Shown: positions 16,016-46,374 of the stretch, one piece after another
Layout: every line of letters begins with the position of its first letter
How positions within the stretch are numbered: position 1 is the stretch's first letter
Assembly: GCA_043801935.1 (NCBI GenBank)
Contig: JAZDLO010000058.1
Span: 7,075 to 71,074 of the forward strand
Length of the DNA stretch: 64,000 nucleotides
Source: a bacterium
Lineage (GTDB): Bacteria > Actinomycetota > Thermoleophilia > RBG-16-64-13
Direction: 5' to 3'
Translations under genes and position numbers: made by a program
Notes under the pieces: model-generated
What the model saw: the letters and a program-made list of their open reading frames with translations, nothing else
The model's database searches: none
What the model was told of the DNA's origin: nothing

Positions 16016-16018
16016 CCG

Positions 16019-18317: not shown

Positions 18318-18321
18318 GCGC

Positions 18322-22144: not shown

Positions 22145-22163
22145 ACGATGCCCGAATCCTCGT

Positions 22164-22490
22164 ATGAAATGCGGCCGCCGACAGGCTAGACTGATCATCG
22201 ATCAATCCATCGATGGCAGGACGCCCAGGGACCCCCAGGTGGTCGTGATGGGACTGCCGGAGTACGAACGTGTGCTGACGAAGAGCACGGGCGGAGGGTG
22301 GCGTGAGTCGGTGCCGGCCGCGCGCGAGCGCGTGCAGGGCGAATTACGGGGCAAGACGATCCCCTTTCCAGAGGAAGTGCTCCGACAGGTAAGGGACGAG
22401 CGCGATGGGCAGAACGGCGGTCCGGCTGCTCAGATGACCGCGAACGAAGTGCCGCACGGCGAGGGTAGATCCCCAGGGAGGGTCTGCTAG
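22164..22490 (+). CDS. Possible orphan Phd/YefM-like antitoxin (weak call)
   Basis: ARLIIDQSIDG...PQVVVMGLPEYERVL resembles the Phd/YefM core. IPFPEEVLRQVRDERD resembles C-terminal tails seen in antitoxins paired with PIN toxins. There is no toxin ORF downstream, because a convergent ADH gene overlaps the end by 4 nt. Confidence 0.3.
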   Translation: MKCGRRQARLIIDQSIDGRTPRDPQVVVMGLPEYERVLTKSTGGGWRESVPAARERVQGELRGKTIPFPEEVLRQVRDERDGQNGGPAAQMTANEVPHGEGRSPGRVC

Positions 22491-23662
22491 AGCGCCTTCA
22501 GGAAGATCTCCGCAGCCTCCTTGGGCCCTACCTCGCGAGGGTTCATGAAAGCCATAGGAACGGCCTGGAAAGTCATCAGCTCGTCAACGAAGCCGGGGAT
22601 GTCGGCCTCGGTTATCCCGACTTCGCTCAGGCGTTGGGGCACGCCCAGGTCGGAGAGCAACCGGCGTACCGCGGCCACCGACTTCAGGGCGGCGTCCATG
22701 GTGGAAAGGCCGCGGGTGTTCTCTCCCATAAGTCGGGCCACCTCTGCGAACTTGTCCGGGCCGGAGATCAGGTTGTACTCCATGACGTAGGGGAGCAGAA
22801 GACCGACCTTGGCCCCATGAGAGAGGTGGACCTTTTTGTGGTGCAGGGCGTGATTCATGAAGTGGGCGATCCCCACACCGCCCACCGATCCGGCCAGCAT
22901 GGCCACGGCGGCGGCTATCGACAGTCGGTAGCGGTCTTCCAGGCGCACGGATCCCTTGGCATAGGCGGGCCTGAGACTGGTCGTGACCAGCTTGATGGCT
23001 GTGGAGGCATACATGTCGGTGACCAGGTTGGCCCGGGAGCTGGTGTAGGCCTCGATGGCATGGGTGAGGGCGTCTATGCCGCCGTCGGCCGTGATCCTGG
23101 CCGGCAGGTCGCGGGTGAGCTCCGGATCGATGATCACTGCGTCTGGGAGGTTCCCACCGGTGATGTACGCGTAGTTGCGGTCATCGCTGGTGTCGGTGGT
23201 GAACACCGCGACCGTGCTCCACTCCGAGCCGGTGCCCGCGGTGGTGGGGATGAGGATCCTGCTGAGACTCTTCGCGGGCGATCCCCCGTCGATGAGGTCC
23301 TGGATGCCTATGTCGGGATTGGCGGCCAGCAGGCCGGCAGTCTTGGTCGCGTCCATGACGCTGCCCCCACCGACCCCGATGAGCAGGTCGTAGCCGCCCT
23401 CGCTCGCCATCCGGCTCAGCGCCTCTACGGTGCTGACCGGTGCTTCCGGCCCGCACTGGTCGAACACCTCCGCCTTCAGGCCGCCCGAGCCAAGGGCCGC
23501 CCGCACGGAAGCGATTATGCCCGCCTCCACCAACCCCTGATCGGTGACGATGAGGAGTTTCCTCGCGCCGAGGCTCCGCACCAGATCCCCGATGCCGTTC
23601 AGAGCGCCTACGCCGATCAGGGTCCGCGGGACCCTGATCTCGATCACCTCGGTAAGATCCAT
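22487..23662 (-). CDS. Iron-containing (group III) alcohol dehydrogenase, copy 1
   Basis: GVGGGSVMDATK, TTAGTGSEW, and His-rich metal site motifs (DALTHAIEAY, HFMNHALHH). AAGAGGAGG SD. Last gene of the acd-A3-B3 operon. Confidence 0.9.
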   Translation of the reverse strand: MDLTEVIEIRVPRTLIGVGALNGIGDLVRSLGARKLLIVTDQGLVEAGIIASVRAALGSGGLKAEVFDQCGPEAPVSTVEALSRMASEGGYDLLIGVGGGSVMDATKTAGLLAANPDIGIQDLIDGGSPAKSLSRILIPTTAGTGSEWSTVAVFTTDTSDDRNYAYITGGNLPDAVIIDPELTRDLPARITADGGIDALTHAIEAYTSSRANLVTDMYASTAIKLVTTSLRPAYAKGSVRLEDRYRLSIAAAVAMLAGSVGGVGIAHFMNHALHHKKVHLSHGAKVGLLLPYVMEYNLISGPDKFAEVARLMGENTRGLSTMDAALKSVAAVRRLLSDLGVPQRLSEVGITEADIPGFVDELMTFQAVPMAFMNPREVGPKEAAEIFLKAL

Positions 23663-23738
23663 CTCGACGACCTCCTCTTAGTGTGAGTCCTGCGGTATGC
23701 GCCCAAGGATGCCGGAGCAAGACCGGCGTATTGCCGGC

Positions 23739-24575
23739 CTAGGCGGTTCTGGAGAGGACGATGTCTCCCAGATAACGGTCGACATTGGTTCTGACAACCA
23801 GCCTCTCGCTCTCGTAGCCCGTAGCCGAGACTGTCACTGCATAGGTCATACCCGCCGGCAGATCCTCGAACTCGAAGTCCCCGAAGTTGTCGGTCAGCAC
23901 CGTCTTCTTTGCTCCCTCCCCCTCAAGGGAGACGCTGACCCCCTCCGCACATTCATCGGTATCGCCGAATACCACGGCACCGGCCACGAATCTCTTCGGA
24001 AGGCCGATATAGCGCACCTTTTCCTCTAGCCCATACTCGGGCTGCAACGCCTCAGTCCGCCCCGAAGCCACCACCCTGGAGATTTCACTTCCGGGATCCT
24101 CCAGGTCGCCGAACACCAGGGCACCGGTGGGACAGGCCTCCACACATCTGGGCTCTTTCCAGCCGTTGTCGAGGAGATGGGCACACAGAGTGCATTTCTG
24201 CGGGACTTGTCGTTCCTCGTTCCAGTAGATCACTCGGTAGGGGCAACTGGAGACCAGGTCCTTCTGCCCGATCGCTTTCCCGGGATCGATGATGACGATG
24301 CCGTCGTCTCTTCGATAAACAGCATCCCCCCGGGACGTCTCCACGCAGGTGGGGCTATCGCAGTGCATACAGGGAACGGCCGTATAGGCAACCTTGACCT
24401 TGGGGTAGGCGCCCCGTTCCTTTTCCCGGATCCGCATCCAGAACTGACCGGTCATCGGCTGGGACACGGAATAGGGCGGACGGTCGTTCCCGCAGTACTC
24501 GTCCTTGCAGGCCAAGAAGCAGTTATAGCATCCGTTACATTTGCTGACGTCCACTACCATCCCATAGCGAGCCAT
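23739..24575 (-). CDS. BthL-like 3x[4Fe-4S] small subunit (copy B3)
   Basis: CNGCYNCFLACKDEYC, CMHCDSPTCV, CTLCAHLLDNGWKEPRCVEACP. The C-terminal barrel carries NFGDFEFEDLPAGMTYAVTV. Confidence 0.9.
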   Translation of the reverse strand: MARYGMVVDVSKCNGCYNCFLACKDEYCGNDRPPYSVSQPMTGQFWMRIREKERGAYPKVKVAYTAVPCMHCDSPTCVETSRGDAVYRRDDGIVIIDPGKAIGQKDLVSSCPYRVIYWNEERQVPQKCTLCAHLLDNGWKEPRCVEACPTGALVFGDLEDPGSEISRVVASGRTEALQPEYGLEEKVRYIGLPKRFVAGAVVFGDTDECAEGVSVSLEGEGAKKTVLTDNFGDFEFEDLPAGMTYAVTVSATGYESERLVVRTNVDRYLGDIVLSRTA

Positions 24576-24616
24576 AGAGATCAGACCTCCCGATCTGCTA
24601 TCCGGTGATCAGCCGG

Positions 24617-27124
24617 CTACTCTGCTTCCCATTTCGCCATTTCTATCAGGCAGGAGTTGGGCGCCATGCCTGCGACATTCTTCGACACCATGCGCGAAGG
24701 AGTCAGTAGGTTTATGCAGCCGCCCCTGTCCGTACTGCCGGCCTTACCGGGCTCCAACGGATCGTATTTGGACGATCCCTCGCAGGAATGGACCACGCCG
24801 GGTCTCACTCGTTCGGTGACCTGGGCTATGCCCAAGACGGAGGCGCGATCGTTGTAGAGCTTGACGATATCCCCGTGCTTGATGCCTCTGGCTTCCGCGT
24901 CCACGGGGTGGAGGCGGACTACCTGCCAGGCGTACCCGTTCTTGATCACCCGGTGACCGGGGATCTCCGACAGCCATGGCACGTGAGTGTCGTGCTGCGT
25001 GTGGAAGGAGAACCGGGGATGAGGCGAGATCAGCTGGAGCGGATACTTGTCCGCCAGTTCCGAGGTGTGCCCTTCCCAGCTGGGGATGTAGTGCGGCAGC
25101 GGGGGCCGCTCCTCATCGTCCGGGAGATGAGCCAGCAGGCTTTGGGAAACGAACTCTATCTTGCCGCTGTAGGTCGCCAGCTCCGTGCTCTTCTCCGTGT
25201 CTCTCTTGGGATTGCTCGTGTCGGGAGTGTCGCACGGCCGTCCTTCGTAGAACCAGCGCAAAGCGGGGGTCGATTTGTAGTCTTCGACCTGTGGGACCAC
25301 GTAGTAACCCTTCTCTTTGAACTCCTCGAAGGAAACGTACTTCGGCAGGTCGGAAGCGTAGAACATCTTCTCGACCCAGCCCTCGAAGGTGTTGCCTTCG
25401 GTGAACTCCTCCTCCACTCCCAGCCTCCTGGCCAGCTCGCAGAAGATGTCGTAGTCAGGCTTCGATTCACCCACCGGCTCCACGCATTTCTGCTGATAGA
25501 CGATGACCCGGTGATTGCAACTGCCGGAAGCGTGCAGAGAGTAGCCCCCGGAACTCGCCCATTCCCCGATGTCATAGCGCTCGAGATTGGTGCAGGCCGG
25601 GAGGATGATGTCGGCAAGTTTGGTCTCGGTGCACCACCAGCAGTCCTGGTTGACCACGAACTCGAGCTTGGGGCTTTGGTACATCCTCACCCAACGGTTG
25701 GTGTCGGTCATGGTGGCCAGGAAGGCGCCGCCGTACCGGTAGAACATCTTGATCTCGGAGCAGCCGGGCAGAGGGTAGGTGTACGGTACGAACTGCTGTT
25801 CCAGAGAGTTGCCGCAGAAGCCTTCGCCGATCCAGCTGATGGGTGGGCTCAAGATGGCTTCCGGGAGAGTCAATCGATAGAGCCGCTGCTTCACGGGGTT
25901 CACGGCCGGTTTCTCGGCGATCAGGTTGAACCCTCCGGATGCGTACCCCGGGAACTCCAGGGTGGCATTGTACGGGGGGCCGTTGGCGGTGCCCCAGATA
26001 CTCACGCCGGGCTTCCCCAATCCCTGCATGGCTTGAAGCAAGACCAGCATCCTCGCGGTCTCGGTGGCATATGCTTGCCTGCAGTGGCCGCCCTCTCCCC
26101 CCTTGACTCCACCGGCCAAGGCGGTTCGTTTCGCGGCCCACTCTCGGGCCAAAGCGACTATGGTGCGCGAGGGGACGCCGGTTATCTCCGCCGCCCACCC
26201 GGGCGTCTTGGGAGCGCTGTCGTCCTCGCCGAGGACGTACTTCCGGAATTCCTCGAAGCCGACCGTGCGACCGGCTACATAGTCCTTGTCGTACGTGCCT
26301 TCGGTCAGCCAGACATAGGCGATAGCCAGGGCCGGGGCGGCGCTTGTACCGGGTCTATTGGCTATCCATTTGTCCCCTACGGCCGCGCCGGTATAGTTGT
26401 AGAAGGGGTCGATAATGATCTGCCTCTTACCCTGCTGTTTGAGCCAGAGGCGCCAGAGAGCAGACTCGTTCCCCCCGTAGATCCCATGGGTGGAATCGGG
26501 GTCGTTACCCCAGTGGATCACGAGCTCGGTGTGCCTGAGGGCATCCTCGAGCATGTCGTAGTGCTCAGGATTGCCGAGTCTCCAGTAGAAGCCCCAGGAA
26601 TGGGTCGCCCCCCAGTGCCAGCCTTCCCAACTATCGGGGTTGTCGAAGATGTCCGAGAATCCGATGACGTTGAAGAACCGCGCCCACGCTGCAGAGCGAT
26701 AGCCCAGGTTCCCCCAGTTATGGTGAGAAGAGGCCCTGGACATGATGGCTTCCGGCCCGTGTTCGGCGCGGATACGCTTCATCTCGCCGGAGACGATCTC
26801 AAGCGCTTCGTCCCAGCTGATCCTCACGTATGGGGACTTGCCTCTGTTTTGGGGGTTCCTCTCCCCCTCAGGGTCGAAATCGACCCGCTTCATGGGAAAG
26901 AGGATCCTCTCGTCGGAGTAGACCCTGGCCCTCTCGGTCAAGGCGAAGGCGGCTACACACGCTTTTCTGAGAGGGGTGTACTCCTCGCCGTCCACCTCGA
27001 GCTTCCAGGAGGCGGCGTCCGAGTCGTCGAAGACCAGGGGACGTACACGGGTGATCTTCCCGTCCTCCACGTGCACCCGGATCGGGCCACCGTTCGTACA
27101 GTTCACAAAGATCTGCTCTGGCAT
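24617..27124 (-). CDS. Molybdopterin oxidoreductase large subunit, AthL-like, clade B (copy A3)
   Basis: 835 aa. Motifs: NCTNGGPIRVHVEDGKITRVRPL, FDPEGERNPQNRG, ASSHHNWGNLGYR, NPDSWEGWHWG, EFPGYASGG, ILPACTNLERYDI. Confidence 0.9.
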   Translation of the reverse strand: MPEQIFVNCTNGGPIRVHVEDGKITRVRPLVFDDSDAASWKLEVDGEEYTPLRKACVAAFALTERARVYSDERILFPMKRVDFDPEGERNPQNRGKSPYVRISWDEALEIVSGEMKRIRAEHGPEAIMSRASSHHNWGNLGYRSAAWARFFNVIGFSDIFDNPDSWEGWHWGATHSWGFYWRLGNPEHYDMLEDALRHTELVIHWGNDPDSTHGIYGGNESALWRLWLKQQGKRQIIIDPFYNYTGAAVGDKWIANRPGTSAAPALAIAYVWLTEGTYDKDYVAGRTVGFEEFRKYVLGEDDSAPKTPGWAAEITGVPSRTIVALAREWAAKRTALAGGVKGGEGGHCRQAYATETARMLVLLQAMQGLGKPGVSIWGTANGPPYNATLEFPGYASGGFNLIAEKPAVNPVKQRLYRLTLPEAILSPPISWIGEGFCGNSLEQQFVPYTYPLPGCSEIKMFYRYGGAFLATMTDTNRWVRMYQSPKLEFVVNQDCWWCTETKLADIILPACTNLERYDIGEWASSGGYSLHASGSCNHRVIVYQQKCVEPVGESKPDYDIFCELARRLGVEEEFTEGNTFEGWVEKMFYASDLPKYVSFEEFKEKGYYVVPQVEDYKSTPALRWFYEGRPCDTPDTSNPKRDTEKSTELATYSGKIEFVSQSLLAHLPDDEERPPLPHYIPSWEGHTSELADKYPLQLISPHPRFSFHTQHDTHVPWLSEIPGHRVIKNGYAWQVVRLHPVDAEARGIKHGDIVKLYNDRASVLGIAQVTERVRPGVVHSCEGSSKYDPLEPGKAGSTDRGGCINLLTPSRMVSKNVAGMAPNSCLIEMAKWEAE

Positions 27125-27203
27125 CCAATCATCCCTTCGCCAAATGGGTAGTGGGAGGCATCCGTCAGAGGGAATACCACAGGCCGCCTGTCGGCGCTAG
27201 GCT

Positions 27204-28427
27204 CTAGGCATCAGGCGCACCGATCATGAGGGCCACGTCTGTAGTGGCAAACCCGTGGAGGAACGTATAGACGTCCCGCAGATACTTCTGGATGGGGACA
27301 TCGTCGTCCGCGGTACCCAGGCCCCCGAAGATACCCACTGCGTGGTTGGCCACACTCAGACCCATCTCGTCGACGTACGCTTTGATCAAGATGCCCATCT
27401 TGGGATCATAGTCATACCTGGTCTCCCAGGACCAGGCGGATTTCCAGAGGAGAGCCCTGGCCGCCTCGATCTGCACCTTCATCTGGGCTAGTTTGATGGC
27501 CACATGCTGGTGCTCGATTATCTTCCTGCCACCCTGGATCCGGTTCCTCGAGTAGTTGAGGGCCTCCTCGTAGCAGGCTCGGACCGTTCCCAGGTTCACG
27601 GCGGCGCCGAGGAGCCCGAAGGGCGGGGGCGCCCCGGCCCCGGTCTTGGTCCAGTCCTTCCGTGGGCCCCCTCCGCCTTCACCCTCGGATCCCCAGGCGT
27701 CGCCCTCCTCGCCCACCAGGTAGCGGGCGGGAATACGCGCGTCTTCGAACACCAATTCCGCGTTCGGGAGCAGTCTTCTTCCCAGCTTGTTGTGGAATCT
27801 GCCTATGGAGAACCCGGGTGCGTCGTCAGGCATCAGGAACAGGCTCAGGCTCGTGGATATCGGCCCTTTCTTGTCCGTTCTTGCGTAGAGAAAATACAGC
27901 TTGGCGATCCCGCCGCTGGAGATGAAGTGCTTGGTCCCGTTGATGACGTATTCATCGCCTCTTCGCTCGGCGAAAGTCTGAATCGAAGCCCCGGGCTCGT
28001 CGTAGAGGTAATGGGAGTCGGTGCCCGCATCGGGCTCTGTTCTGGCAAGCGCCATGAGATAGGTGTCGTCCTCGAGGAACTTGGGCAGGAACTCATCCCT
28101 TTGCTCGTCGCTCAGCTCCGCCACGATCCTGGGCGATTCCGTGTAGCAGCCTCGTATGATGCTGGCAAAGCCCTGGTCGGCGGCCCCGAGCTCTTCCAAT
28201 ATGATCGCCAGCGTCAGATAGTCGGCCCCTTCGCCCCCCCATTTCTCAGGGATCGCCGCCGTCCTCAGGCCCAGCTGGGAGGCTTTCTTGATCAGATCCC
28301 AGGGGATGCAGTCTTTCGGGTCGCTCTTGCGATCGAGTTCCAGCGCAGCAGGCTTCACTTCCTCCTGCGCGAACTCGCGAACCATGTCGCGCGTCATTTC
28401 CTGTTCGTCGGTCAATCTGAAGTCCAT
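27204..28427 (-). CDS. Acyl-CoA dehydrogenase
   Basis: 407 aa. N-terminus DFRLTDEQEMTRDMVREFAQEEV, a typical ACAD middle region, and a C-terminal helical domain (ARALLWKSAW..., YTFLHGFATTD). Confidence 0.85.
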   Translation of the reverse strand: MDFRLTDEQEMTRDMVREFAQEEVKPAALELDRKSDPKDCIPWDLIKKASQLGLRTAAIPEKWGGEGADYLTLAIILEELGAADQGFASIIRGCYTESPRIVAELSDEQRDEFLPKFLEDDTYLMALARTEPDAGTDSHYLYDEPGASIQTFAERRGDEYVINGTKHFISSGGIAKLYFLYARTDKKGPISTSLSLFLMPDDAPGFSIGRFHNKLGRRLLPNAELVFEDARIPARYLVGEEGDAWGSEGEGGGGPRKDWTKTGAGAPPPFGLLGAAVNLGTVRACYEEALNYSRNRIQGGRKIIEHQHVAIKLAQMKVQIEAARALLWKSAWSWETRYDYDPKMGILIKAYVDEMGLSVANHAVGIFGGLGTADDDVPIQKYLRDVYTFLHGFATTDVALMIGAPDA

Positions 28428-28547
28428 ACGTGCACCTCCTGCTCACGTTCATTCGCCTGCTGCTTGCGCCAACTCCCACGGTCACAGCGGAAATGCTGGC
28501 TTTTCGGGATATTCTCTCGAGGCTTCCCCCCATCTTGGTCGCGGCTA

Positions 28548-28629
28548 CATGATAATGCGCGCGGAAAGTGGGGGGAGCACTTCGACGTAACTTTTCATGG
28601 CGGGGGCGAAGTATGACGGCGACGTATAG
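28548..28629 (-). promoter_or_regulatory. Conserved 82-nt operator/promoter element, copy a (faces the acyl-CoA dehydrogenase operon)
   Basis: The minus strand reads CTATACGTCGCCGTCATACTTCGCCCCCGCCATGAAAAGTTACGTCGAAGTGCTCCCCCCACTTTCCGCGCGCATTATCATG. It aligns without gaps to copies b and c and ends in a TATCAT -10-like hexamer. Confidence 0.6.
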
Positions 28630-28675
28630 ATAGACGGGATAAGCGAGGCTTGCCAGCGTCGCAGTCCCTGCTGAT

Positions 28676-29575
28676 CTATGATGGACCCGCGTCGCCGCGA
28701 TTGGAAACGCCTGCCCGGACGTGGACCATGAGTGCCCGCGCCGCCGCGGTCAGGGGGCGGTCCCGGGGGTAGACGAGGTTAAGATCTCGGGCCAACGGGC
28801 TCTCGAAGGGGATGGCGATCAGTCCCTCAAGAGTCTCGGGAGCGACCAGCATCTTGGGCATCGGCGCCACGCCCAGACCCCTTCTCACCAGAGCCTTGGT
28901 CAGCTCGGGGTAGTTCGCTCGATAGGAGAACTTGGGCTCGAAGCCAGCCCGGCGCAAGGCATCTGCCACTATGTTGCCGGCGTTCATGGTCGCCCGGGGA
29001 AGCAGTATCGACTCGCGCGCGAGCATGCTCAAAGCGACCGCCGAGTGGTTCGCAAGCCTATGTCCATGAGGGACCACCAGCAGGATCTCCTCTGTGAGCA
29101 GATACTGAGTCGCGGCTCGAGTAGACCCCCACGGCGTCATGACGGCGCAATCGAGCTCTCCGCTGATGACCGCTTCCTCGAGCTGCGCGTCGTCCTTCTC
29201 GATGAGATCGACGCTCACTTTCGGATAAGCCTCGAGAAAAGAGACGAGAATGGGAGTCAGGAGGAGGGCAAAGACGTTTCCGACGGCACCGAACCGCACC
29301 GTGCTCGGACCGGCCCCTGCCTGCTCGCGCAGAAGACTGACCGCCTCATCGGCGCGGGTGACGATCGCCTGAGCCAGGGGAAGTAGCAGCTGCCCGCTGA
29401 CGGTGCATTCGACATGTCTTCCGTATCGCTCAAACAGCTGAGTCCCAAACTCGCTCTCCAAACGGGCGATCTGACGGCTGAGCGTGGGCTGCGTGGAATG
29501 CATGGCCCGCGCGGCTCGGCTGAAGCTGCGAGCCTCCGCTACAGCCAGGAATGATTTGAGGAGATCCAGTTCCAT
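28676..29575 (-). CDS. LysR-family transcriptional regulator
   Basis: The wHTH region reads LDLLKSFLAVAEARSFSRAARAMHSTQPTLSRQIARLESEFGTQLFER. 299 aa. There is no SD, and the ATG abuts element copy b. Confidence 0.9.
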   Translation of the reverse strand: MELDLLKSFLAVAEARSFSRAARAMHSTQPTLSRQIARLESEFGTQLFERYGRHVECTVSGQLLLPLAQAIVTRADEAVSLLREQAGAGPSTVRFGAVGNVFALLLTPILVSFLEAYPKVSVDLIEKDDAQLEEAVISGELDCAVMTPWGSTRAATQYLLTEEILLVVPHGHRLANHSAVALSMLARESILLPRATMNAGNIVADALRRAGFEPKFSYRANYPELTKALVRRGLGVAPMPKMLVAPETLEGLIAIPFESPLARDLNLVYPRDRPLTAAARALMVHVRAGVSNRGDAGPS

Positions 29576-29657
29576 CTATACATCATCGTAATACTTTGCG
29601 CCGGCCATGAAAAGTTGCGTCGAAGTGCTTCCCCAGTTGCTGAGTCGGACTATGATG
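29576..29657 (+). promoter_or_regulatory. Conserved 82-nt operator/promoter element, copy b (lysR/etfB divergent region)
   Basis: CTATACATCATCGTAATACTTTGCGCCGGCCATGAAAAGTTGCGTCGAAGTGCTTCCCCAGTTGCTGAGTCGGACTATGATG. It contains the dyad ACTTT-N13-AAAGT (29593-29615) and a TATGAT hexamer (29651-29656) about 70 nt upstream of the etfB GTG. Confidence 0.6.
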
Positions 29658-29723
29658 TAGCAGCCGGCCCAGCCTAAGGGTGCGGCGCGGTCGAAGGTCG
29701 CCTTGCGAAGGAAGGGAAGACCA

Positions 29724-30500
29724 GTGAACATCGCGGTTTGTGTGAAGCAGGTGGTCGACACAGAGGCGGAGAAGAGGCTCGACCCCGGCTCTTGGCGTCT
29801 GGACCGTAGCGTGGACAACATCCTCAATCCGTACGACGAATACGCGGTGGAGGAAGCGCTGCGATTGCGTGAGTCTCAGGGTGGCGAGGTCATAGTGCTG
29901 TGTATGGGCCCCGAGACGGCAGCGGACGCCGTGCGCAAGGCGCTGGCCATGGGGGCAGACCGTGCGCTGATGGTCAGCGATCCCGTTCTGGCCGGTTCCG
30001 ACTCGCAAGGGACGGCATACGTCCTTGCGGAAGCACTGAAAAGTCTCGAACACGACCTCGTGCTCTTCGGGATCCGGTCCACTGATGCGGAGACCGGCTG
30101 CGTGCCGGCTGCCGTGGCCGAGCGACTCGGTCTGCCTTTGCTCTCTTCCCTCTCGAAAGTCGAAGTACAGGGCTCCGCCCTTGTGGTCCACCGGGAGACA
30201 GAGCAGGGCTATGTCGCCTACGAATGCCCCCTGCCGGCCGTTCTCTCCGTCGTCAAGGGCATCAACGAGCCCCGATACCCATCGATGAAGGGCATCATGG
30301 GTGCAAAGAAGAAGCCGCTGGAGTCAAGAGACGCGGCCGCCCTGGATCTCGACGCGAGCCAGATCGGCGTTTCCGGCGCCAAGACCCGCGTGCTGTCCGC
30401 TCGTTTTCCCGAGCCCCGCAAAGCGGGGGTCAAGATCGAAGACGACGGTGAGGGTGCTCAGCGGATCGCCGATTTCTTGGCGGCCGAAAAGCTCGTCTAG
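29724..30500 (+). CDS. etfB: Electron transfer flavoprotein, beta subunit
   Basis: GTG 29724 follows GGAAGGGAAG. Motifs: NIAVCVKQVVDTE...RLD, LNPYDEYAVEEALRL, PRYPSMKGIMGAKKKP. Confidence 0.9.
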   Translation: MNIAVCVKQVVDTEAEKRLDPGSWRLDRSVDNILNPYDEYAVEEALRLRESQGGEVIVLCMGPETAADAVRKALAMGADRALMVSDPVLAGSDSQGTAYVLAEALKSLEHDLVLFGIRSTDAETGCVPAAVAERLGLPLLSSLSKVEVQGSALVVHRETEQGYVAYECPLPAVLSVVKGINEPRYPSMKGIMGAKKKPLESRDAAALDLDASQIGVSGAKTRVLSARFPEPRKAGVKIEDDGEGAQRIADFLAAEKLV

Positions 30501-30570
30501 CGGCGCCTCAGCGCTGGTGGTATCTGCTTTCGTGGCCGACTGAAGACCGAAGGGTAGGGGAGATAGATCA

Positions 30571-31560
30571 GTGAATGACAAGAGTGGCATCCTTGTTGTA
30601 GCCGAGTCCAAGGATGGGAAACTTGCCAACGTCTCCTTGGAGAGCATCACGCGGGCTCGCGCGCTTGCCGCCGCGATCGGCGGACCCGTGAGTGTGGTCG
30701 CAATGGCCGCGGAGGCCGGGCCTTTGGCGGCGCAGGCCGCCCGCTACGGCGCCGAACGAGTCTACGTGGTCGAGAGCTCCGACCTCGCCGTGTTTCGACC
30801 GGGTCCGTTCGTCGACGCGGCGTCGGCCGGGATCGAGGCTGCCGGCCCGGCGTTGGTCGTCTTCGCGGGCTCGCCCGACGGCCGAGACGTCGCGGCCGGT
30901 TGCGCCACCCGGTTTGGCGTAGGTCTCCTCGCGGACATCACAGGTCTGGAGGCCCAAGACGGCCGCCTCATCGCCACCCATCCCTGCTTCGGGGGCAGCG
31001 TGATCGTGGAGAAGGAGGCGACCACCAGCCCGGCGATGGCTACGGTGCGGCCGAACGTCTTTGCCCGTGAGGAAGCGCCTGGTGACGCGGAGGTCATACC
31101 GCTCCCGGTGGAATTCAACCCGGGCGGCCTTCTGATCAAGGTGCTCGACGTCGTCTGCGAGATGGCGGGCATCGTCAGTCTCGAGGAAGCATCGGTCATA
31201 GTCGCCGGCGGTCGTGGCCTTGGCAAGGCCGAGGGCTTCGGCATCATCCATGCGCTGGCTGAGGAGCTCGGCGCTGCCGTGGGCGCCAGCCGGGCCGCGG
31301 TGGACGCTGGTTGGAAGCCCCACCAATACCAGGTGGGTCAGACCGGAAAGACCGTCTCGCCCAAGCTCTATATCGCCTGTGGCATCTCTGGCTCGATCCA
31401 GCACCGCGCTGGGATGCAAACCGCCGACTACATCGTGGCGATCAACAAGGACGCGGACGCACCCATCTTCTCTTTTGCGGACTTCGGCGTGGTGGGGGAT
31501 CTCTTCAGCGTGGTGCCCGCTCTGACGGAGGAGATCCACCGACGTAAGACCGCGTCCTAG
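30571..31560 (+). CDS. etfA: Electron transfer flavoprotein, alpha subunit
   Basis: The FAD-binding C-terminus reads VAGGRGLG...GASRAAVDAGW...QVGQTGKTVSPKLYIACGISGSIQHRAGM. Confidence 0.9.
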   Translation: MNDKSGILVVAESKDGKLANVSLESITRARALAAAIGGPVSVVAMAAEAGPLAAQAARYGAERVYVVESSDLAVFRPGPFVDAASAGIEAAGPALVVFAGSPDGRDVAAGCATRFGVGLLADITGLEAQDGRLIATHPCFGGSVIVEKEATTSPAMATVRPNVFAREEAPGDAEVIPLPVEFNPGGLLIKVLDVVCEMAGIVSLEEASVIVAGGRGLGKAEGFGIIHALAEELGAAVGASRAAVDAGWKPHQYQVGQTGKTVSPKLYIACGISGSIQHRAGMQTADYIVAINKDADAPIFSFADFGVVGDLFSVVPALTEEIHRRKTAS

Positions 31561-31570
31561 GACCGACGCC

Positions 31571-33643
31571 GTGGAGACCCGGGAACTTCTGTGGAACATC
31601 CCCTTGTGGGCGGAAGTGGTCATGTACGCCGGGGCGGCGATCACCATCCTGCTGCTCATCGCATACGCCGTTCGCCGAGTGATGGTGTACCGGCGGGGAC
31701 GCGCGGCGTCCACCCGGCACGCCGATCACCTGCCGGGCCGAGTATGGGATCTCGTCCTCAACGGTCTTCTGCAGAGGGCGATCGTCGACAATCGCTACGC
31801 GGGGATCATGCACCTCTCGATCTTCTGGGGATTCACGGTCTTGCTGATCGGCACCATCATCCTGATCTTCGTCATCGACTTCGGCCTGCACTTCTTCACC
31901 GGCCGTTTCTATCTCGGGTTCAGTTTCATCATGGAGCTGGGAGGGCTGGCCCTTCTCCTTGGCGTGGTGCTGGCGGTTTTGCGACGGTACGTGAGAAGGC
32001 CGGCCCAGCTCGAGCGTCGCTGGTACGACCACTACCCTTTGATCACGCTGTTCGTGCTCGGGATCACCGGTTTTCTGATGGAGGGGGCCCGCATCTATGC
32101 GGCCGGGCTCCCCGACTACGAGCAGGTAGCGAGTTTCGTGGGCTACGGCCTGGCCAGGGGATATGCCGACATCGGCAGCGCCGAGGGCTTCACCACGTTC
32201 TACCGGTACATGTGGATCTTCCACATGTTGCTCACGCTGGGCTTCATCGGGCTTCTCGGCTTCACCAAGTTCCTACACGTCTTCACCGCCCCGGCCAATG
32301 TCTTTCTGCGGGACCGGCGGTCCAAGGGCGCTATGCCCTTCGTTCCCGATGTGGAGGAGACCGACGAGCTGGGCGTGGGTACCATCACGGCCTACTCCTG
32401 GCCCGACCTCAAGGATCTCGACGCCTGCACGCGCTGTGGACGGTGCGAGGAAGTCTGCCCGGCCACCGCCTCCGGCAAGCCTTTGAACCCCAAGACCATC
32501 GTCCTCAAGAGCCGCCAGATCCTGCAGCAAAGAGAGGCCGAAGCGATGCGCACCTGGCTCCGGCGGGGCTCCGGCTCGTCCCCGGACATCCCCGATCTCT
32601 TCGACGTCATCGAGGACGACGAGGTGTGGAGCTGCACCACCTGCAGAAGTTGCGTGGAGCACTGCCCGGTGGCGATCGACCAGCTGAGCAAGGTGCTCGA
32701 GCTGCGTCGCTACCTGACCAACGAAGGGCGCCTCGCCGGGAGTGCGGCCAAGGCCCTGGAGTCCATGGGCATGCGGGGGAACCCCTGGCAGCTCAAGCAG
32801 AGCGATCGCATGGCCTGGGCCGAGGGGCTGGACGTAGAGGTGCCGGTGCTGGCCGAGATCCAGGACTCCGACCGGCCGTCCGACAGCGCCGAACCGGAAC
32901 CCGTCGACTACCTCTTCTTCGTCGGCTGCGCCGGCAGCTACGACCCCCGCGCGCAGAAGGTGACGCAGGCACTCGTGCGCCTGCTTACGCGGGCCGGGGT
33001 GTCTTTCGCCGTATTGGGAGAGGAAGAGACCTGCAGCTGCGAAGCCGGTCGCCGCATGGGGGAGGAGATGCTCTTCCAGGTGGGCGCTGAGACTCTGAAG
33101 GAGACCATAGACCAGTACCGCTTCCGTGCGATCCTCACCCAGTGCCCGCACTGCTACAACACCTTCCGCAACGAGTATCCGCAGATCGGCGCCGATTGGA
33201 AAGTGGTGCATCATTCCGAGCTGCTGCAGGAGCTGGTCTCCAGTGGGCGGCTGCCGGCCACGCCCTCCTCGGGTCTGCAGGTGACCTATCAATATTCATG
33301 CTATCTGGGGCGCTACAACGATATCTATCAGGCGCCACGAGAGGTGCTGGGTGCGGCGGGGCTCTCCCTGAAAGAGCCTCGGCGCCACGGCCGTGAAGGG
33401 TTTTGCTGCGGTGGAGGCGGAGGACGGATGTGGAGCGAGATCAAGATCGGAGAGCCCATCGAGTTCCTGCGCACTCGGGAACTTCTCGAGACCGGAGCTC
33501 CCGTGATCGCCACCGCCTGTCCTTTCTGCAAGATAATGCTCGATGACGGGGTGAAACACGAGGGCTTCGAGGAGCGGCTAAGCGTCCGAGATATCGCGGA
33601 AATACTCGACGAGGCGTGCACTTACGGATACAGCGAGGAGTGA
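31571..33643 (+). CDS. Membrane-anchored FeS oxidoreductase (NarI/DsrM-like TM domain fused to HdrD/GlpC-like 2x[4Fe-4S] and CCG domains); candidate ETF:quinone oxidoreductase
   Basis: The N-terminal ~250 aa hold about 5-6 hydrophobic helices. Then CTRCGRCEEVCP and CTTCRSCVEHCP, followed by FFVGCAGSYDPR and FCCGGGGG CCG motifs. Its position right after etfBA matches the syntroph-type EtfAB-associated oxidoreductases. Confidence 0.8.
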   Translation: METRELLWNIPLWAEVVMYAGAAITILLLIAYAVRRVMVYRRGRAASTRHADHLPGRVWDLVLNGLLQRAIVDNRYAGIMHLSIFWGFTVLLIGTIILIFVIDFGLHFFTGRFYLGFSFIMELGGLALLLGVVLAVLRRYVRRPAQLERRWYDHYPLITLFVLGITGFLMEGARIYAAGLPDYEQVASFVGYGLARGYADIGSAEGFTTFYRYMWIFHMLLTLGFIGLLGFTKFLHVFTAPANVFLRDRRSKGAMPFVPDVEETDELGVGTITAYSWPDLKDLDACTRCGRCEEVCPATASGKPLNPKTIVLKSRQILQQREAEAMRTWLRRGSGSSPDIPDLFDVIEDDEVWSCTTCRSCVEHCPVAIDQLSKVLELRRYLTNEGRLAGSAAKALESMGMRGNPWQLKQSDRMAWAEGLDVEVPVLAEIQDSDRPSDSAEPEPVDYLFFVGCAGSYDPRAQKVTQALVRLLTRAGVSFAVLGEEETCSCEAGRRMGEEMLFQVGAETLKETIDQYRFRAILTQCPHCYNTFRNEYPQIGADWKVVHHSELLQELVSSGRLPATPSSGLQVTYQYSCYLGRYNDIYQAPREVLGAAGLSLKEPRRHGREGFCCGGGGGRMWSEIKIGEPIEFLRTRELLETGAPVIATACPFCKIMLDDGVKHEGFEERLSVRDIAEILDEACTYGYSEE

Positions 33644-33647
33644 ACGT

Positions 33648-35501
33648 ATGGCTCGCGGTTACATGGGAAAGATACTGTGGGCGGATCTCTCCAAGCAACA
33701 ACTCTGGGATGAGGTCCTCGACGAAGAACTGGGCCGTCGGTATCTTGGGGGTTACGGTTTGGGCGCCAAGATACTTTTCGACCGGCAGCCCGCCGGTGTC
33801 GACCCGCTGGGCCCGGAGAACATACTCGGCTTCCTTACCGGTCCCTTTACGGGAACCGGCGCGCTCGGCGGGTCAAGGTTCGCGGTCGTGGGGAAATCTC
33901 CCCTGACCGGTACGTGGGGCGATGCCAATTCGGGGGGGAATTTCGGTCCCTACTTGAGATTTGCCGGCTATGACGCGGTGTTCTTCACCGGGGTGTCTTC
34001 GAAGCCGGTGTACCTGTTGGTCGCCGATGGTGTGGCTGAGATCAGAGACGCCGCCCATTTGTGGGGGAAGGACACTCACGATACTGAAGACATACTCAGG
34101 GACGAACTCGGCAAGGATGTCGAGGTCGCTTCCATCGGCCCCTCAGGCGAGAAGCTTTCCCTTATCTCAGGGGTCATGACCGACAAAGGCAGGGCCGCTG
34201 CGCGCTCGGGACTCGGAGCTGTGATGGGCTCCAAAATGCTGAAGGCGATCGTGGCAAAGGGTAGGGCGCAGGTCCCGGTCTTCGACGCCGACAGGGTCGC
34301 CACCCTGCGGCAGACGTACGCGAGAAAGCTCGCCGGGCTGGTCGATGAGTTCAGGAACTTCGGTACCGCCTCCGTCATCGTGCCATTTGCCAAGATAGGA
34401 GATGCGCCGGTAAAGAACTGGTCCGGGGTCTGCGAGATCGACTTTCCCGGGATCGAGAAGATCGGCGTCGACCCGGTAATGGAGAGGGTGCAGAGGAAAT
34501 ACGCCTGCCACCGTTGTGTCATCGCCTGCGGCGGTCTCATGAAGGAAAGCGCCGGAGAGTACGGATACCCCTACGGCGTCCACAAGCCCGAATATGAGAC
34601 CGTCAGCATGTTCGGCACCAATTGCCTGAATGACAACCTCGAGTCGATCATCAAGGCAAACGACGTGTGTAACCGTCTCGGGGTGGACACGATATCGGCC
34701 GGCGCATGTATCGCCTTTGCCATCGAATGCTACGAAAACGGGGTCATCACCAAAGAAGACACCGACGGCATCGAAATGACCTGGGGGAACCATCGATCGA
34801 TCGTCTCCATGCTCGAGAACCTGTGCGAGAGAAAAGGATTTGGCGACGTTCTCGCTGATGGAGTCAAGATCGCCGCGGAAAGGATCGGCGGAGGCGCCGA
34901 TCAATATGCCATACATATCAACGGACAGGAGCTCCCGGCCCATAATCCCAAATTCGAGTATGGGTTCGCGTCCTGCTACAGGATGGACGCTACTCCCGCT
35001 CGGCATATGCGCTGGCACGGCGGGTTCGTGCCGCCAGGGGTTCCCGTGCCCAAGTACGAGCCCGGGGCATGGAGCGGCAGAGGCGAGGCCCAGAAGATCA
35101 ATGTCATCTTCAATCACGCCCTCGAGAGTCTTGGTGCCTGCGTATTCGTCATCGCCACCTATCCCCACGTCGATGTCCTGATCGAGTTCCTCACTGCCAT
35201 CACCGGCTGGGATACGACCCTGGACGAAGTACTGGCGACCGGCGAGAGGATCGCCAATCTGCGTCAAGCATTCAACACACGCGAGGGGCTGAATCCGCTG
35301 GACTACGTCGTCTCCGGAAGGCTGGTGGGAGAACCACCTTTGGAGGCCGGTCCGCTTGCCGGGGTGACCATCGATCAGGACGCGATAAACCGCGAGTTCC
35401 TGGAGGCCATGGATTGGGACCTCACGACGACTAAGCCCAGCAAGAAGAAACTGCGGGACCTGGGTCTGGACGACGTGGCGAAGTCACTCTGGCCATCGTG
35501 A
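33648..35501 (+). CDS. Aldehyde:ferredoxin oxidoreductase (tungstopterin AOR family)
   Basis: N-terminus GYMGKILWADLSKQQLWDEVLDEELGRRYLGGYGLGAKILFD. Further motifs: GTWGDANSGG, and the FeS region KYACHRCVIACGG. 617 aa; GAGGAG SD. Confidence 0.9.
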   Translation: MARGYMGKILWADLSKQQLWDEVLDEELGRRYLGGYGLGAKILFDRQPAGVDPLGPENILGFLTGPFTGTGALGGSRFAVVGKSPLTGTWGDANSGGNFGPYLRFAGYDAVFFTGVSSKPVYLLVADGVAEIRDAAHLWGKDTHDTEDILRDELGKDVEVASIGPSGEKLSLISGVMTDKGRAAARSGLGAVMGSKMLKAIVAKGRAQVPVFDADRVATLRQTYARKLAGLVDEFRNFGTASVIVPFAKIGDAPVKNWSGVCEIDFPGIEKIGVDPVMERVQRKYACHRCVIACGGLMKESAGEYGYPYGVHKPEYETVSMFGTNCLNDNLESIIKANDVCNRLGVDTISAGACIAFAIECYENGVITKEDTDGIEMTWGNHRSIVSMLENLCERKGFGDVLADGVKIAAERIGGGADQYAIHINGQELPAHNPKFEYGFASCYRMDATPARHMRWHGGFVPPGVPVPKYEPGAWSGRGEAQKINVIFNHALESLGACVFVIATYPHVDVLIEFLTAITGWDTTLDEVLATGERIANLRQAFNTREGLNPLDYVVSGRLVGEPPLEAGPLAGVTIDQDAINREFLEAMDWDLTTTKPSKKKLRDLGLDDVAKSLWPS

Positions 35502-35776
35502 AATACAACGTAGAGTTCTTCGGAATGACCAATGACGCAGCCGGCGTTCGTACTGTCGAGCTGGAACTGGACGATGGGGCAAGCCTCAAGGATCTTGTAG
35601 GCGCCCTTAGACGTAAAATGCCGGCTTTAGAGGGAAGCGTCATCCGTCCCGGAGAGGATAGATTGACGGCCCATTACGCCTTCAATGTGAACGGCCGTTT
35701 CTATGTCGATGATTACGACGTCGTGGTCGAAGGCGATGATCACATTCTGCTGCTGACTTTTGCCCTAGGCGGGTGA
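35498..35776 (+). CDS. MoaD/ThiS-family beta-grasp protein (C-terminal Gly-Gly)
   Basis: 92 aa ending ...LLTFALGG. GTGA overlap with the AOR stop. AOR-linked MoaD-like genes are known from other AOR operons. Confidence 0.75.
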   Translation: MKYNVEFFGMTNDAAGVRTVELELDDGASLKDLVGALRRKMPALEGSVIRPGEDRLTAHYAFNVNGRFYVDDYDVVVEGDDHILLLTFALGG

Positions 35777-35829
35777 GCGGAGGCCCGGGTGACGGGGCCG
35801 GCCCAGACGATCGGCGGCACCAGAGCCGT

Positions 35830-35911
35830 CTATACGTCATCGTAATACTTTGCCGCACCCATGAAAAGTTCTGACGAACTGCGTCCCCCGCTGCCGGCCC
35901 GGACTATCATG
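35830..35911 (+). promoter_or_regulatory. Conserved 82-nt operator/promoter element, copy c (upstream of the CMD-family gene)
   Basis: CTATACGTCATCGTAATACTTTGCCGCACCCATGAAAAGTTCTGACGAACTGCGTCCCCCGCTGCCGGCCCGGACTATCATG. By hand alignment 65 of 82 positions match copy b, with no indels. Confidence 0.6.
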
Positions 35912-36014
35912 GGGCCGGTACGAATACCGGGCGCTGACCGTCGGGAAACATTCCACATGGCTTGTGCCTACCGCTTGATCAGTCGGTCGAGGCGCACTAC
36001 ACAAGGAGCGAACG

Positions 36015-36464
36015 ATGCCCAGACCTGAAGAAGTCGAAGTAGTCGAAGCGATGAAGGCGGCTAAGACGGCCGAGGAGATCCTCGAGTCGTGGACCAAGCA
36101 GAGGCCCGGTTACGGCAAACCGCCGGATGATCCCACGCTTGATTTCTACAAAGACAACAAGCCGGAGATGCTGTCCACTTTCGCTCACAACCAGCTCACG
36201 CAGCTGCTCGACCGCGGCATCCTGGACCCCAAGACCCGCTATCTCATCCTGATCGCGTGCTACATGATGGAGAACCATTGGGAAGGTGTGCTGCCGCAGG
36301 CCTGCAATGCCAAAGCGGCCGGGGCGACCGACGAAGAGATCATGGAAGTGGCGTTCTGCGCCTGTTACGCCGTGGGCAAGGCCAAGATGCAGGAGAGCGG
36401 CGCCTGCCTCAACAAGGTATTCGCCAGCAACACCTTCCAGAGCATCGAGAGGCTGGAGAAGTAA
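36015..36464 (+). CDS. Carboxymuconolactone decarboxylase (AhpD-like) family protein
   Basis: 149 aa, all-helical. LDPKTRYLILIACYMMENHWEGV...AGATDEEIMEV is typical of the CMD fold. AAGGAG SD. Confidence 0.6.
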   Translation: MPRPEEVEVVEAMKAAKTAEEILESWTKQRPGYGKPPDDPTLDFYKDNKPEMLSTFAHNQLTQLLDRGILDPKTRYLILIACYMMENHWEGVLPQACNAKAAGATDEEIMEVAFCACYAVGKAKMQESGACLNKVFASNTFQSIERLEK

Positions 36465-36553
36465 CTCAGGGGAATCGGCCCTCGACACGTGGGTCGATGG
36501 ACCCGCAAGGGCCCGGTTAGCGGTCGACCATGAGAGCCGATGAGGCTTTGCGG

Positions 36554-36581
36554 AAAAAGCTCCGTAACGCGGGGCTTTTTC
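36554..36581 (+). terminator. Rho-independent terminator after the CMD gene
   Basis: AAAAAGCTCCG-TAACG-CGGGGCTTTTT: a 6-bp GC stem with one G-U pair, flanked by an A-run and a T-run. Confidence 0.7.
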
Positions 36582-46286: not shown

Positions 46287-46374
46287 AGTCGGTCCCGGAG
46301 TTCTGGGTCGTTTCGGCCCGGAGCTCCGGGACCGGCGTCATTAGTCAGCGACTTGGCGACACGGAGTGAATCAT

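Follow-up and report, generated by a model that had tools for sequence, protein, structure and literature searches.

Carbon turnover in peat, soils and sediments is controlled by the anaerobic degradation of polyphenols that stem from tannin and lignin. Uncultured Chloroflexota, Desulfobacterota and Actinomycetota hold AthL-like genes in great abundance, and the routine label of these genes is "pyrogallol transhydroxylase". To our knowledge, coupling to an acyl-CoA dehydrogenase (ACAD) and an electron transfer flavoprotein (ETF) has not been reported for the Pelobacter transhydroxylase AthL/BthL, and no role has been assigned to its FeS clusters. Within the same family, the resorcinol hydroxylase RehLS (RhLS) of Aromatoleum (Azoarcus) anaerobium is water-dependent and needs an acceptor at the level of the respiratory chain (PMC10084136). 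The chain of ACAD, ETF and the membrane-bound ETF:(methyl)menaquinone oxidoreductase (EMO) is established and reversible, enoyl-CoA respiration being a case in which it operates reductively (PMC8805022). Two questions on the AthL family are touched by the locus described here: what serves as the physiological electron acceptor of its hydroxylase members, and what purpose three FeS clusters have in a redox-neutral transhydroxylase. The locus lies on a stretch of 64,000 nucleotides (the window; contig JAZDLO010000058.1 of assembly GCA_043801935.1, Actinomycetota, Thermoleophilia) and encodes an AthL/BthL-type enzyme, A3/B3. Its conserved core consists of an ACAD-like flavoprotein, A3/B3, EtfBA, an ETF:quinone oxidoreductase and a protein of the carboxymuconolactone-decarboxylase/AhpD-like (CMD) family. 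The reading that we tentatively prefer, with a confidence just short of an even chance, is that of a LysR-controlled regulon for (poly)hydroxybenzene catabolism, in which A3/B3 and a two-electron step by the ACAD-like and CMD proteins would feed electrons via ETF to menaquinone, with an alcohol dehydrogenase and an aldehyde oxidoreductase as accessory enzymes. All functional statements on the regulon, including the substrate, the intermediate and the direction of electron flow, are inferred from genomic data.

Genes were identified by Pfam and NCBIfam scans, the former covering about 50 open reading frames (ORFs) of the window. The core comprises:

23739–24575, minus strand: B3, BthL-type FeS subunit (Fer4_11 and a CarboxypepD_reg C-terminal domain)
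24617–27124, minus strand: A3, AthL/RhL-type Mo subunit with bis-molybdopterin guanine dinucleotide (AhtL-like_1st, Molybdopterin and Molydop_binding)
27204–28427, minus strand: ACAD-fold flavoprotein, first gene of unit 1 (three ACAD Pfam domains: N, M and C)
28676–29575, minus strand: LysR-type transcriptional regulator (HTH_1 and LysR_substrate)
29703 (more likely from a GTG at 29725)–30500, plus strand: EtfB (Pfam ETF)
30571–31560, plus strand: EtfA (Pfam ETF_alpha)
31571–33643, plus strand: membrane FeS/CCG oxidoreductase, candidate for an EMO-type protein (Fer4, two CCG domains and a weak NarI-like N-terminal match)
36015–36464, plus strand: CMD family protein of 149 aa, unit 3 (Pfam CMD)

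The genes fall into three units, namely ACAD-like, A3, B3 and, in the window, an iron-dependent alcohol dehydrogenase (Fe-ADH) in unit 1; EtfB, EtfA, the EMO-type protein and, in the window, an aldehyde:ferredoxin oxidoreductase (AOR) and a MoaD-like protein in unit 2; and CMD in unit 3. The genes listed in a preliminary description of this DNA were all recovered at their positions by Pfam/NCBIfam. The list was incomplete in that the CMD gene, which is all of unit 3, and two neighbours had been missed, an OYE/NCR-like flavoprotein (OYE-type reductase, 38873–40948) and the A3 paralogue A4 (41022–43637), both of which recur beside the locus in relatives.

Homologues of A3 number thousands. The closest (93–73% identity) were found in metagenome-assembled genomes (MAGs) labelled Thermoleophilia, Gaiellales or 'Actinomycetes', and a second tier (75–60%) in Dehalococcoidia, Desulfobacterota, SAR324, Proteobacteria and a single cultured Neomoorella, which makes a Thermoleophilia-like actinobacterium the most likely source of the window. 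In a first neighbourhood survey the window proteins were compared with 82 loci by tblastn; flanks were fetched around A3 orthologues, ACAD-like orthologues and AOR homologues, and the window proteins were mapped onto them. Synteny counts include only loci where the relevant flank is visible or both genes are present. Loci carry L numbers; the nearest relative, R1, combines L001 and L104, whose overlap of 6990 nt agrees at 99.96%. The order ACAD-like, A3, B3 was invariant in all actinobacterial loci holding both genes (13/13), with the ACAD-like gene directly upstream of A3. A lysR gene and a divergent operon of EtfB, EtfA, ETF:quinone oxidoreductase and CMD stood beside this core wherever the flank was visible (10/10), the CMD gene closing the operon in every case. 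EtfB and EtfA of relatives are 67–89% identical to the window proteins, and LysR, its position unchanged, 66–96%. The conservation that had been asked of the neighbourhood was thus found for the core and for the promoter element described below and failed for the Fe-ADH and AOR genes (2 of about 12 and 2 of about 11 loci, respectively). Other genes recur near the locus as well. Proteins of the URO-D family, similar to O-demethylase methyltransferases, are encoded after B3 in L012 and near B3 in L086, which fits a methoxylated or polyphenolic aromatic context. A YhdH/AcuI 'acrylyl-CoA reductase family' protein (16882–17886, above the TIGR02823 cut-off) directly follows A2/B2 in the window, and L001 and L095 encode a homologue (85–86%) close to the A3 locus.

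That A3/B3 belongs to the AthL/BthL family, as had been proposed from the sequence, was borne out by domains, similarity scores and active-site residues. A3 scored 893 bits against AthL (4v4c_A; about 51–55% identity) and contains PF21423 (62 bits), PF00384 and PF01568, the AhtL-like first domain replacing the FeS-binding domain. B3 matched the small subunit of pyrogallol hydroxytransferase (4v4c_B) over its whole length (residues 1–261, 209 bits, E=6e-61) and combines 4Fe-4S domains with a C-terminal beta-barrel. In a MAFFT alignment with 4V4C, A3 keeps H144, R153, D174, S175, Y404 and Y560 of AthL, and W354 is replaced by Glu. In AthL the Ser is the Mo ligand, and His144, Asp174 and Tyr404, with Arg153, are the catalytic residues. 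The set of His144, Asp174, Tyr404, Arg153 and Ser is present in A3, A2 and A5; A1 and A4 do not have R153 and Y404. No signal peptide was found on A3 and no membrane anchor on A3/B3, consistent with a cytoplasmic enzyme.

The window, with a G+C content of about 61%, forms an island in which AthL-like molybdoenzyme genes abound. Large subunits besides A3 are A1 (8157–11845), A2 (13502–16849), A4 and A5 (52234–54825), and the only BthL-like subunits besides B3 in the 64 kb are B1 and B2. A5 stands without a neighbouring B gene, although of these it is nearest to the crystallised transhydroxylase (61%), and A1 and A4 form a divergent subgroup. In L015 and L026 A4 follows B3 directly, so A4 may share B3.

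Outside Actinomycetota, 23 of 73 loci with A3 orthologues carry genes of the phloroglucinol pathway alongside, that is, a PGR-like short-chain dehydrogenase/reductase (SDR), cyclase/DPGC, BKACE/TAL and 3HCDH/TfD. The A3 orthologues in such clusters (61–75%) are from Dehalococcoidia, Desulfobacterota, SAR324, Proteobacteria and Neomoorella, and the locus of the cultured Neomoorella sulfitireducens holds the complete set together with a second transhydroxylase pair, a CoA transferase and a thiolase. This context favours A3/B3 being a benzenepolyol (trans)hydroxylase, probably of a family that usually feeds phloroglucinol degradation. On gene content, its companions in the actinobacterial clade would have been exchanged for the ACAD-like/ETF/CMD set. 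In the window itself no cyclase, BKACE or 3HCDH gene was found, and the sole SDR (62944–63714) lies 28 kb away and shares 40% identity with the PGR-like gene in the phloroglucinol cluster of Neomoorella.

The ACAD-fold flavoprotein is about 30% identical to MCAD and BCAD. Its AF2 model (pLDDT 83) has its best Foldseek match in MCAD/BCAD (TM 0.84), and the FAD-binding motif TEPxAG(S/T)D is present as TEPDAGTD. The catalytic base is gone at both known positions: the catalytic loop, LHGFAT, aligns with IYEGT and has no Glu at the J-K loop (MCAD E376/BCAD E367), and the Glu at the helix-G position (IVD E254/LCAD E261) is missing too. Sixteen family members, the most distant at 50% identity, share the replacement, and H391 is invariant among them; in the predicted model the loop is formed by H391-G392-F393-A394. 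The preliminary description had read the locus as a complete oxidation ladder, in which hydroxylation by A3/B3 would be followed by Fe-ADH, AOR and an ACAD acting on a CoA ester, with electrons passing via ETF and EMO to the quinone. Loss of the glutamate speaks against this ladder, as does the failure to find a CoA ligase or transferase: the window ORFs scanned with Pfam contain no AMP-binding, CoA_trans, ECH or thiolase domain, and the conserved core of the relatives contains no CoA ligase, transferase, hydratase or thiolase. The CoA-ester rung is therefore unsupported, and the ligase gap that had been noted earlier is better explained by there being no CoA-ester step at all.

Distant homologues of the ACAD-like protein (50–61%) have the same invariant residues and pair with CMD genes, with no AthL-like gene nearby; the CMD gene is directly upstream in L083, L085 and L093. 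Other members in this range of identity stand beside Tct/TRAP carboxylate transporters and DHDPS-, Lyase_1- or PrpD-type enzymes. In L083 (Chloroflexota MAG GCA_042582865.1, 6937–12396) a glycyl-radical enzyme, CMD, a base-less ACAD-like protein (61%) and a radical-SAM activase are encoded one after the other; EtfBA and a CCG FeS oxidoreductase lie 7 kb away. The CMD/ACAD-like pair apparently serves quite different upstream enzymes. The association with CMD and carboxylate transporters away from any Mo partner argues that the ACAD-like protein has its own substrate, a small molecule that is probably not a CoA compound. A Gly-rich insertion in the ACAD-like family was considered as a docking element for A3/B3 and found unsupported, since a shorter version is present in the glycyl-radical-enzyme-linked homologue. 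The CMD protein of the window has no CxxC, and most of its invariant residues lie within DRGILDxKTR and QxxNAxAAGxxEEExME. Together with the ACAD-like protein it makes up a pair that crosses phyla, which explains why an operator stands in front of the window CMD gene.

The link from ETF to the quinone pool is well founded, as had been suggested for the membrane FeS protein behind EtfBA. This protein (690 aa) has a hydrophobic N-terminus, Fer4_8/9/10 and a weak Nitrate_red_gam match, and EtfB and EtfA followed by a membrane protein with NarI-like, ferredoxin and CCG domains is the layout of the EMO module (PMC8805022), the NarI-like part being weak here. The same slot of the operon is taken by the CCG/NarI-type protein in the window, R1 and L086, by a divergent CCG type (35–36% identical) in L009, L026, L089 and L090, and by a canonical ETF:quinone oxidoreductase (ETF-QO, PF05187) in L002, L007, L014 and L015. 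Such non-orthologous displacement of one type by the other pins the conserved function of the slot to electron exchange between ETF and quinone.

The direction of this exchange could be the reverse of the one that we prefer. Menaquinol would then donate electrons via EMO/ETF-QO and ETF to the ACAD-like protein, reducing an enone or phenol tautomer in the manner of resorcinol reductase, or A3/B3 would act as a dehydroxylase in a polyphenol respiration. The chain of EMO, ETF and ACAD does operate reductively in enoyl-CoA respiration (PMC8805022), OYE-type reductases recur beside the locus, and menaquinol donates at a more negative potential than is typical of ETF couples; Mo-dependent catechol dehydroxylases are reported to support the respiration of gut Actinobacteria (PMC7028382). 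We nevertheless regard reductive operation as very unlikely, as A3 retains the catalytic residues of the transhydroxylase and falls with AthL, not with the dehydroxylases, ETF-QO, normally an oxidative enzyme, occupies the slot in four loci, and resorcinol reductase has been reported to depend on ferredoxin (PMC10470551). In the regulon that we prefer, the electrons would most likely run to, and not from, menaquinone.

An element common to the three units had been noted before, and this claim held up well. Alignment gave exactly three copies of about 87 bp in the window, and a pattern search returned three matches to a 22-nt box (0.00 expected) and, for a 12-nt core, three exact matches plus one elsewhere with one mismatch (0.12 expected), so that three copies stand against about none expected by chance. 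The regulatory features are:

28544–28630, minus strand: element copy 1, operator/promoter upstream of the ACAD-like gene
29575–29661, plus strand: element copy 2, in the divergent region between lysR and etfB (alignment and pattern search)
35829–35915, plus strand: element copy 3, upstream of the CMD gene (alignment and pattern search)
36551–36581, plus strand: terminator-like hairpin 3' of the CMD gene, with the stem-loop GAAAAAGCUCCG...CGGGGCUUUUUC

The element consists of an imperfect dyad, CTATAC-N6-GTAATAC, followed after about 9 nt by CATGAAAAGTT and about 38 nt later by a -10-like hexamer, TATCAT or TATGAT, which lies about 100 nt from the starts of the downstream genes. The general form of the cassette at the three units is CTATAC-N6-GTAATAC ... 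CATGAAAAGTT ... TATCAT; in copy 2 the hexamer is TATGAT and the CTATAC-N6-GTAATAC box abuts the lysR start codon. The layout is that of a LysR-type regulator, with lysR divergent from a target promoter and a TAC-N6-GTA dyad within CTATAC-N6-GTAATAC at three promoters. Orthologues of copy 1 are present in L001, L004, L009, L012, L014, L015, L026, L086, L089, L094 and L095, and 'TTCCAT|CTATAC...GTAATAC' is kept in 12 relatives. As a phylogenetic footprint the element is retained at both orthologous promoters in the syntenic relatives, and its occurrence at orthologous positions supports a real operator/promoter. A counterpart of copy 3 is found in L104 (12234–12330) and was not seen where CMD directly follows the ETF oxidoreductase gene. 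In R1 the lysR-proximal element drives a canonical ACAD of 601 aa in which LYEGT is present (L001 4885–7556/L104 1–2150), adjoined by a 4HBT thioesterase, and etfB has an additional copy of its own. With four copies in the R1 genome, the operator behaves as a portable cassette. Since a conserved LysR-type operator stands in front of each unit, the co-regulation that had been proposed for the three units is plausible. The 146-nt region with the hairpin behind the CMD gene folds at z = -2.9. An Rfam scan of 21000–38000 gave no real match.

The accessory genes of the window are:

22487–23662, minus strand: Fe-ADH, last gene of unit 1 (Pfam Fe-ADH and ADH_Fe_C)
33648–35501, plus strand: AOR (AFOR_N and AFOR_C)
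35498–35776, plus strand: MoaD/ThiS-like protein (Pfam ThiS)

Neither the Fe-ADH nor the AOR gene has an element of its own in the window, so expression is expected only by read-through; the gaps are 76 nt between B3 and Fe-ADH and 4 nt between the FeS oxidoreductase gene and AOR. The best PDB matches of Fe-ADH are 1,3-propanediol oxidoreductase and lactaldehyde reductase (DhaT/FucO type). Maleylacetate reductase was rejected as an assignment, enzymes of that kind scoring 46–56 bits only. Behind B3 the gene was found only in the window and in L095 (85% identical), i.e. in 2 of the approximately 12 loci with a visible flank. It is 73% identical to a second Fe-ADH of the window (60681–61862), which adjoins a creatininase-family protein (61873–62892) and the SDR mentioned above in a cluster spanning 60681–63714. 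The creatininase-family protein has a weak match to the ring-cleaving 3-dehydro-scyllo-inosose hydrolase IolN, and the three genes could form an alternative set for ring reduction and ring hydrolysis. Assignment of the creatininase-family gene as dihydrophloroglucinol cyclohydrolase was unsupported, since the cyclohydrolase that has been characterised is a member of the cyclase family.

AOR scored 250 and 333 bits with AFOR_N and AFOR_C, and its closest PDB entries are 9mqx_D (368 bits) and 1aor (334 bits) versus 181 bits for BamB. By this closeness to true AORs it is assigned as a probable aldehyde:ferredoxin oxidoreductase sensu stricto, and a BamB-like ring reductase was rejected. The pair of AOR and MoaD in unit 2 is confined to the window and its nearest relative R1 (L104, 92%), 2 of about 11 loci; in R1 the order is etfB, etfA, EMO, an extra AthL/BthL pair, AOR, MoaD, element, CMD. 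In L086 a different Fe-ADH takes the position of AOR-MoaD, with no extra element. Homologues of AOR (78–79%) with MoaD-like genes also adjoin other AthL-like genes in L105 and L106, in a context of HGD-D/BcrAD-type components (2-hydroxyacyl-CoA dehydratase/benzoyl-CoA-reductase-like) and metallo-beta-lactamase (MBL)-fold hydrolases. This AOR clade seems to be repeatedly associated with AthL-like enzymes, an association that the high number of AthL paralogues could yield by chance.

Absence of the Fe-ADH and AOR genes from most syntenic loci marks both as late and variable additions to a core that is itself stable, and the occurrence of A3 orthologues in phloroglucinol clusters makes peripheral (upstream) or side activities more likely for them than downstream rungs. 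The complete sequence of hydroxylase, alcohol, aldehyde, acid and CoA ester proposed earlier is thus not conserved, its alcohol and aldehyde enzymes being rare and its ACAD base-less. The ladder does draw on all enzyme classes standing under one common operator in the window, on ADH or AOR genes recurring in the operons of the closest relatives (L095, L086 and R1/L104) and on the canonical 601-aa ACAD and thioesterase that R1 holds under the same operator. Beyond the points already given, enzymes of the AthL/RhL type turn ring carbons into phenols and not into alcohols that an ADH can oxidise, and AOR normally reduces ferredoxin and not ETF. Taken together, we consider the ladder highly improbable.

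In the model that we prefer, the regulon with accessory Fe-ADH and AOR, LysR would activate the three promoters when a phenolic effector is present, and A3/B3 would carry out a hydroxyl transfer or hydroxylation of the AthL/RhL type, with a benzenetriol or -tetrol as substrate. The ACAD-fold flavoprotein, for which normal acyl-CoA alpha,beta-dehydrogenation would be excluded, may perform, probably with the CMD protein, a two-electron step on a non-CoA intermediate and exchange the electrons with ETF. The membrane FeS protein would pass the electrons of reduced ETF on to menaquinone, the oxidative direction being the most likely one. As lineage-specific additions, Fe-ADH and AOR-MoaD could admit alcohol- or aldehyde-substituted substrates or remove aldehydes, and would not be obligatory after the Mo enzyme.

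Several observations weigh against this model. Homologues of AOR (78–92%) lie near AthL-like genes in three other contexts, so that AOR is maybe less peripheral than proposed. Phloroglucinol-pathway genes were not recognised near A3 in any actinobacterial syntenic locus, and the product of A3/B3 in this clade may therefore differ. The single-sequence structure model of the CMD protein is poor (pLDDT 60), and consensus scans for sigma70 promoters and terminators were at background level in this high-GC DNA. Finally, a second, unrelated ACAD without the Glu (IVGGGNE) is encoded directly after the Neomoorella A3/B3 orthologue, which hints at a more direct partnership between A3/B3 and a flavoprotein. 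A normal, Glu-bearing ACAD (IVEGS) is encoded upstream of the A3 orthologue in a Desulfobacteraceae locus, and with ACAD-fold genes beside both orthologues a direct functional tie between A3-type enzymes and the ACAD fold is possible.

In the main rival reading the base-less ACAD would be a redox adaptor, collecting electrons at the three [4Fe-4S] clusters of B3 and passing them via ETF and EMO/ETF-QO to menaquinone; A3/B3 would then be a net hydroxylase or an oxidative maker of its own tetrahydroxybenzene co-substrate. The invariant position of the ACAD-like gene immediately upstream of A3-B3 (13/13), the loss of its base, its being the sole ETF-type partner in the conserved regulon, the cytoplasmic location of A3/B3 and the independent Neomoorella case are all as expected for an electron conduit, and phenol hydroxylation couples, by our own estimate about -100 to 0 mV, would suit the level of ETF and quinone and not that of NAD+. 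However, the 50–61% homologues pair with CMD and carboxylate transporters in the absence of a Mo/FeS partner, A3 orthologues occur in phloroglucinol clusters without ETF, consistent with a redox-neutral transhydroxylase, and the ACAD of the Desulfobacteraceae locus is a canonical one; an ACAD as a pure electron adaptor is without known precedent. We therefore judge this proposal unlikely and retain the catabolic regulon, with a substrate-directed ACAD-like/CMD step, as the preferred model.

Further genes of the window lie outside the three units. A 2-oxoacid:ferredoxin oxidoreductase (alpha, beta and gamma subunits and an ACT-domain protein; 17889–20734, minus strand) and a GlcD/GlcF-like module (two FAD_binding_4 proteins and a CCG FeS protein; 1269–5695, plus strand) indicate an anaerobic, ferredoxin-using metabolism. 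Four Peripla_BP_6 solute-binding proteins (1–1173, 11855–13309, 44402–45886 and 59070–60554) look like uptake systems for the substrates of the island; three of the four are complete and carry a twin-arginine-like signal, a lipobox (AACGEE) and a linker rich in Thr, and AthL-like genes precede two of the three. A separate Mo enzyme of 864 aa in the region 46366–50535, with an N-terminal Fe4S4 domain and no obvious Tat signal, is followed by a 4Fe-4S protein (49010–49642) and an NrfD-type membrane anchor (49639–50535), by their domains a putative three-subunit complex of the Psr/Dms type. In L002 and L014 similar Fe4S4-type Mo enzymes are encoded where the locus ends with CMD. The polyphenol island also holds, in its middle, a full-length gene for an XFP phosphoketolase (55893–58538).

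Every part of the locus is of a known family (AthL/BthL, ETF with EMO or ETF-QO, AOR with MoaD, Fe-ADH and the LysR-type regulator). A search of the available full texts found no paper joining pyrogallol hydroxytransferase, acyl-CoA dehydrogenase and ETF, in line with the earlier remark that no described pathway was known to couple an AthL-family enzyme to ADH, AOR, ACAD and ETF under one operator, and surveys of the AthL family list transhydroxylase and resorcinol hydroxylase functions only. The conserved operonic coupling of an AthL-family enzyme to a base-less ACAD, a CMD protein and an ETF:quinone module therefore appears to be undescribed. It provides a concrete, testable candidate for an electron path from an AthL-type enzyme to the respiratory chain, and it flags an uncharacterised ACAD subfamily that is paired with a CMD-family protein across phyla. 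Caution is due with the appearance of the window as an oxidation ladder, which stems from the recent, variable additions of ADH and AOR. The boldest form of the argument is that in Thermoleophilia-type Actinomycetota a pyrogallol-transhydroxylase-family enzyme has become a respiratory-chain-linked hydroxylase, on whose FeS subunit a disarmed ACAD docks to relay electrons to ETF and menaquinone; in a wider variant the ACAD-like, CMD, ETF, OYE and MBL proteins would constitute a new quinone-linked benzenetriol route replacing PGR/DPGC/TfD/TAL. We rate this boldest reading as rather unlikely. If the disarmed ACAD did act in this way, the FeS clusters of the AthL family would gain a physiological function, and cytoplasmic Mo hydroxylases a new wiring to the quinone pool.

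Among the described systems, the resorcinol hydroxylase RehLS of A. anaerobium belongs, like A3/B3, to the AthL family and is used as a true hydroxylase, the reading that would give the ETF chain a role. The pathway of A. anaerobium continues with BtdLS (with a DoxX-type membrane subunit) and BqdLMS under sigma54 enhancer-binding proteins, whereas the window has LysR, ACAD-like, ETF, EMO and CMD proteins; among the approximately 50 ORFs scanned with Pfam there were no domains of a DoxX-type hydroxyhydroquinone (HHQ) dehydrogenase or of the pyruvate-dehydrogenase-like complex that cleaves hydroxybenzoquinone (HBQ). The AOR of Aromatoleum aromaticum (PDB 8C0Z) shares AFOR_N and AFOR_C and a small MoaD/ThiS-like gene directly downstream; the window does not have the AorA (FeS) and AorC (FAD) partners, and its AOR gene lies 4 nt behind the ETF:quinone oxidoreductase gene. 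The chain of Syntrophus aciditrophicus likewise combines EtfAB and a CCG, NarI-like membrane FeS protein with an ACAD-fold flavoprotein (PMC8805022), but in the window the ACAD has lost its glutamate and stands in a Mo-enzyme operon, beta-oxidation genes are not present, and EMO is swappable with ETF-QO. The phloroglucinol cluster of Clostridium scatologenes (with PGR, DPGC, TfD as well as TAL; PMC10470551) is of the kind in which A3 orthologues (61–75%) are found elsewhere, whereas the actinobacterial A3 loci have no cyclase, BKACE or 3HCDH nearby and carry ACAD-like, ETF and CMD genes instead. Closest of all is AthL/BthL of Pelobacter acidigallici (PDB 4V4C), like A3/B3 a cytoplasmic enzyme of two subunits, with an AhtL-like N-terminal domain devoid of an FeS cluster, Ser as Mo ligand, His144, Asp174, Tyr404 and Arg153, and FeS domains plus a beta-barrel in the beta subunit. 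A3 differs in having Glu for W354, and A5 of the window is nearer to AthL (61%). Compared with the Pelobacter enzyme, A3/B3 is operonic with a base-less ACAD-fold protein and apparently co-regulated with ETF and an ETF:quinone oxidoreductase.

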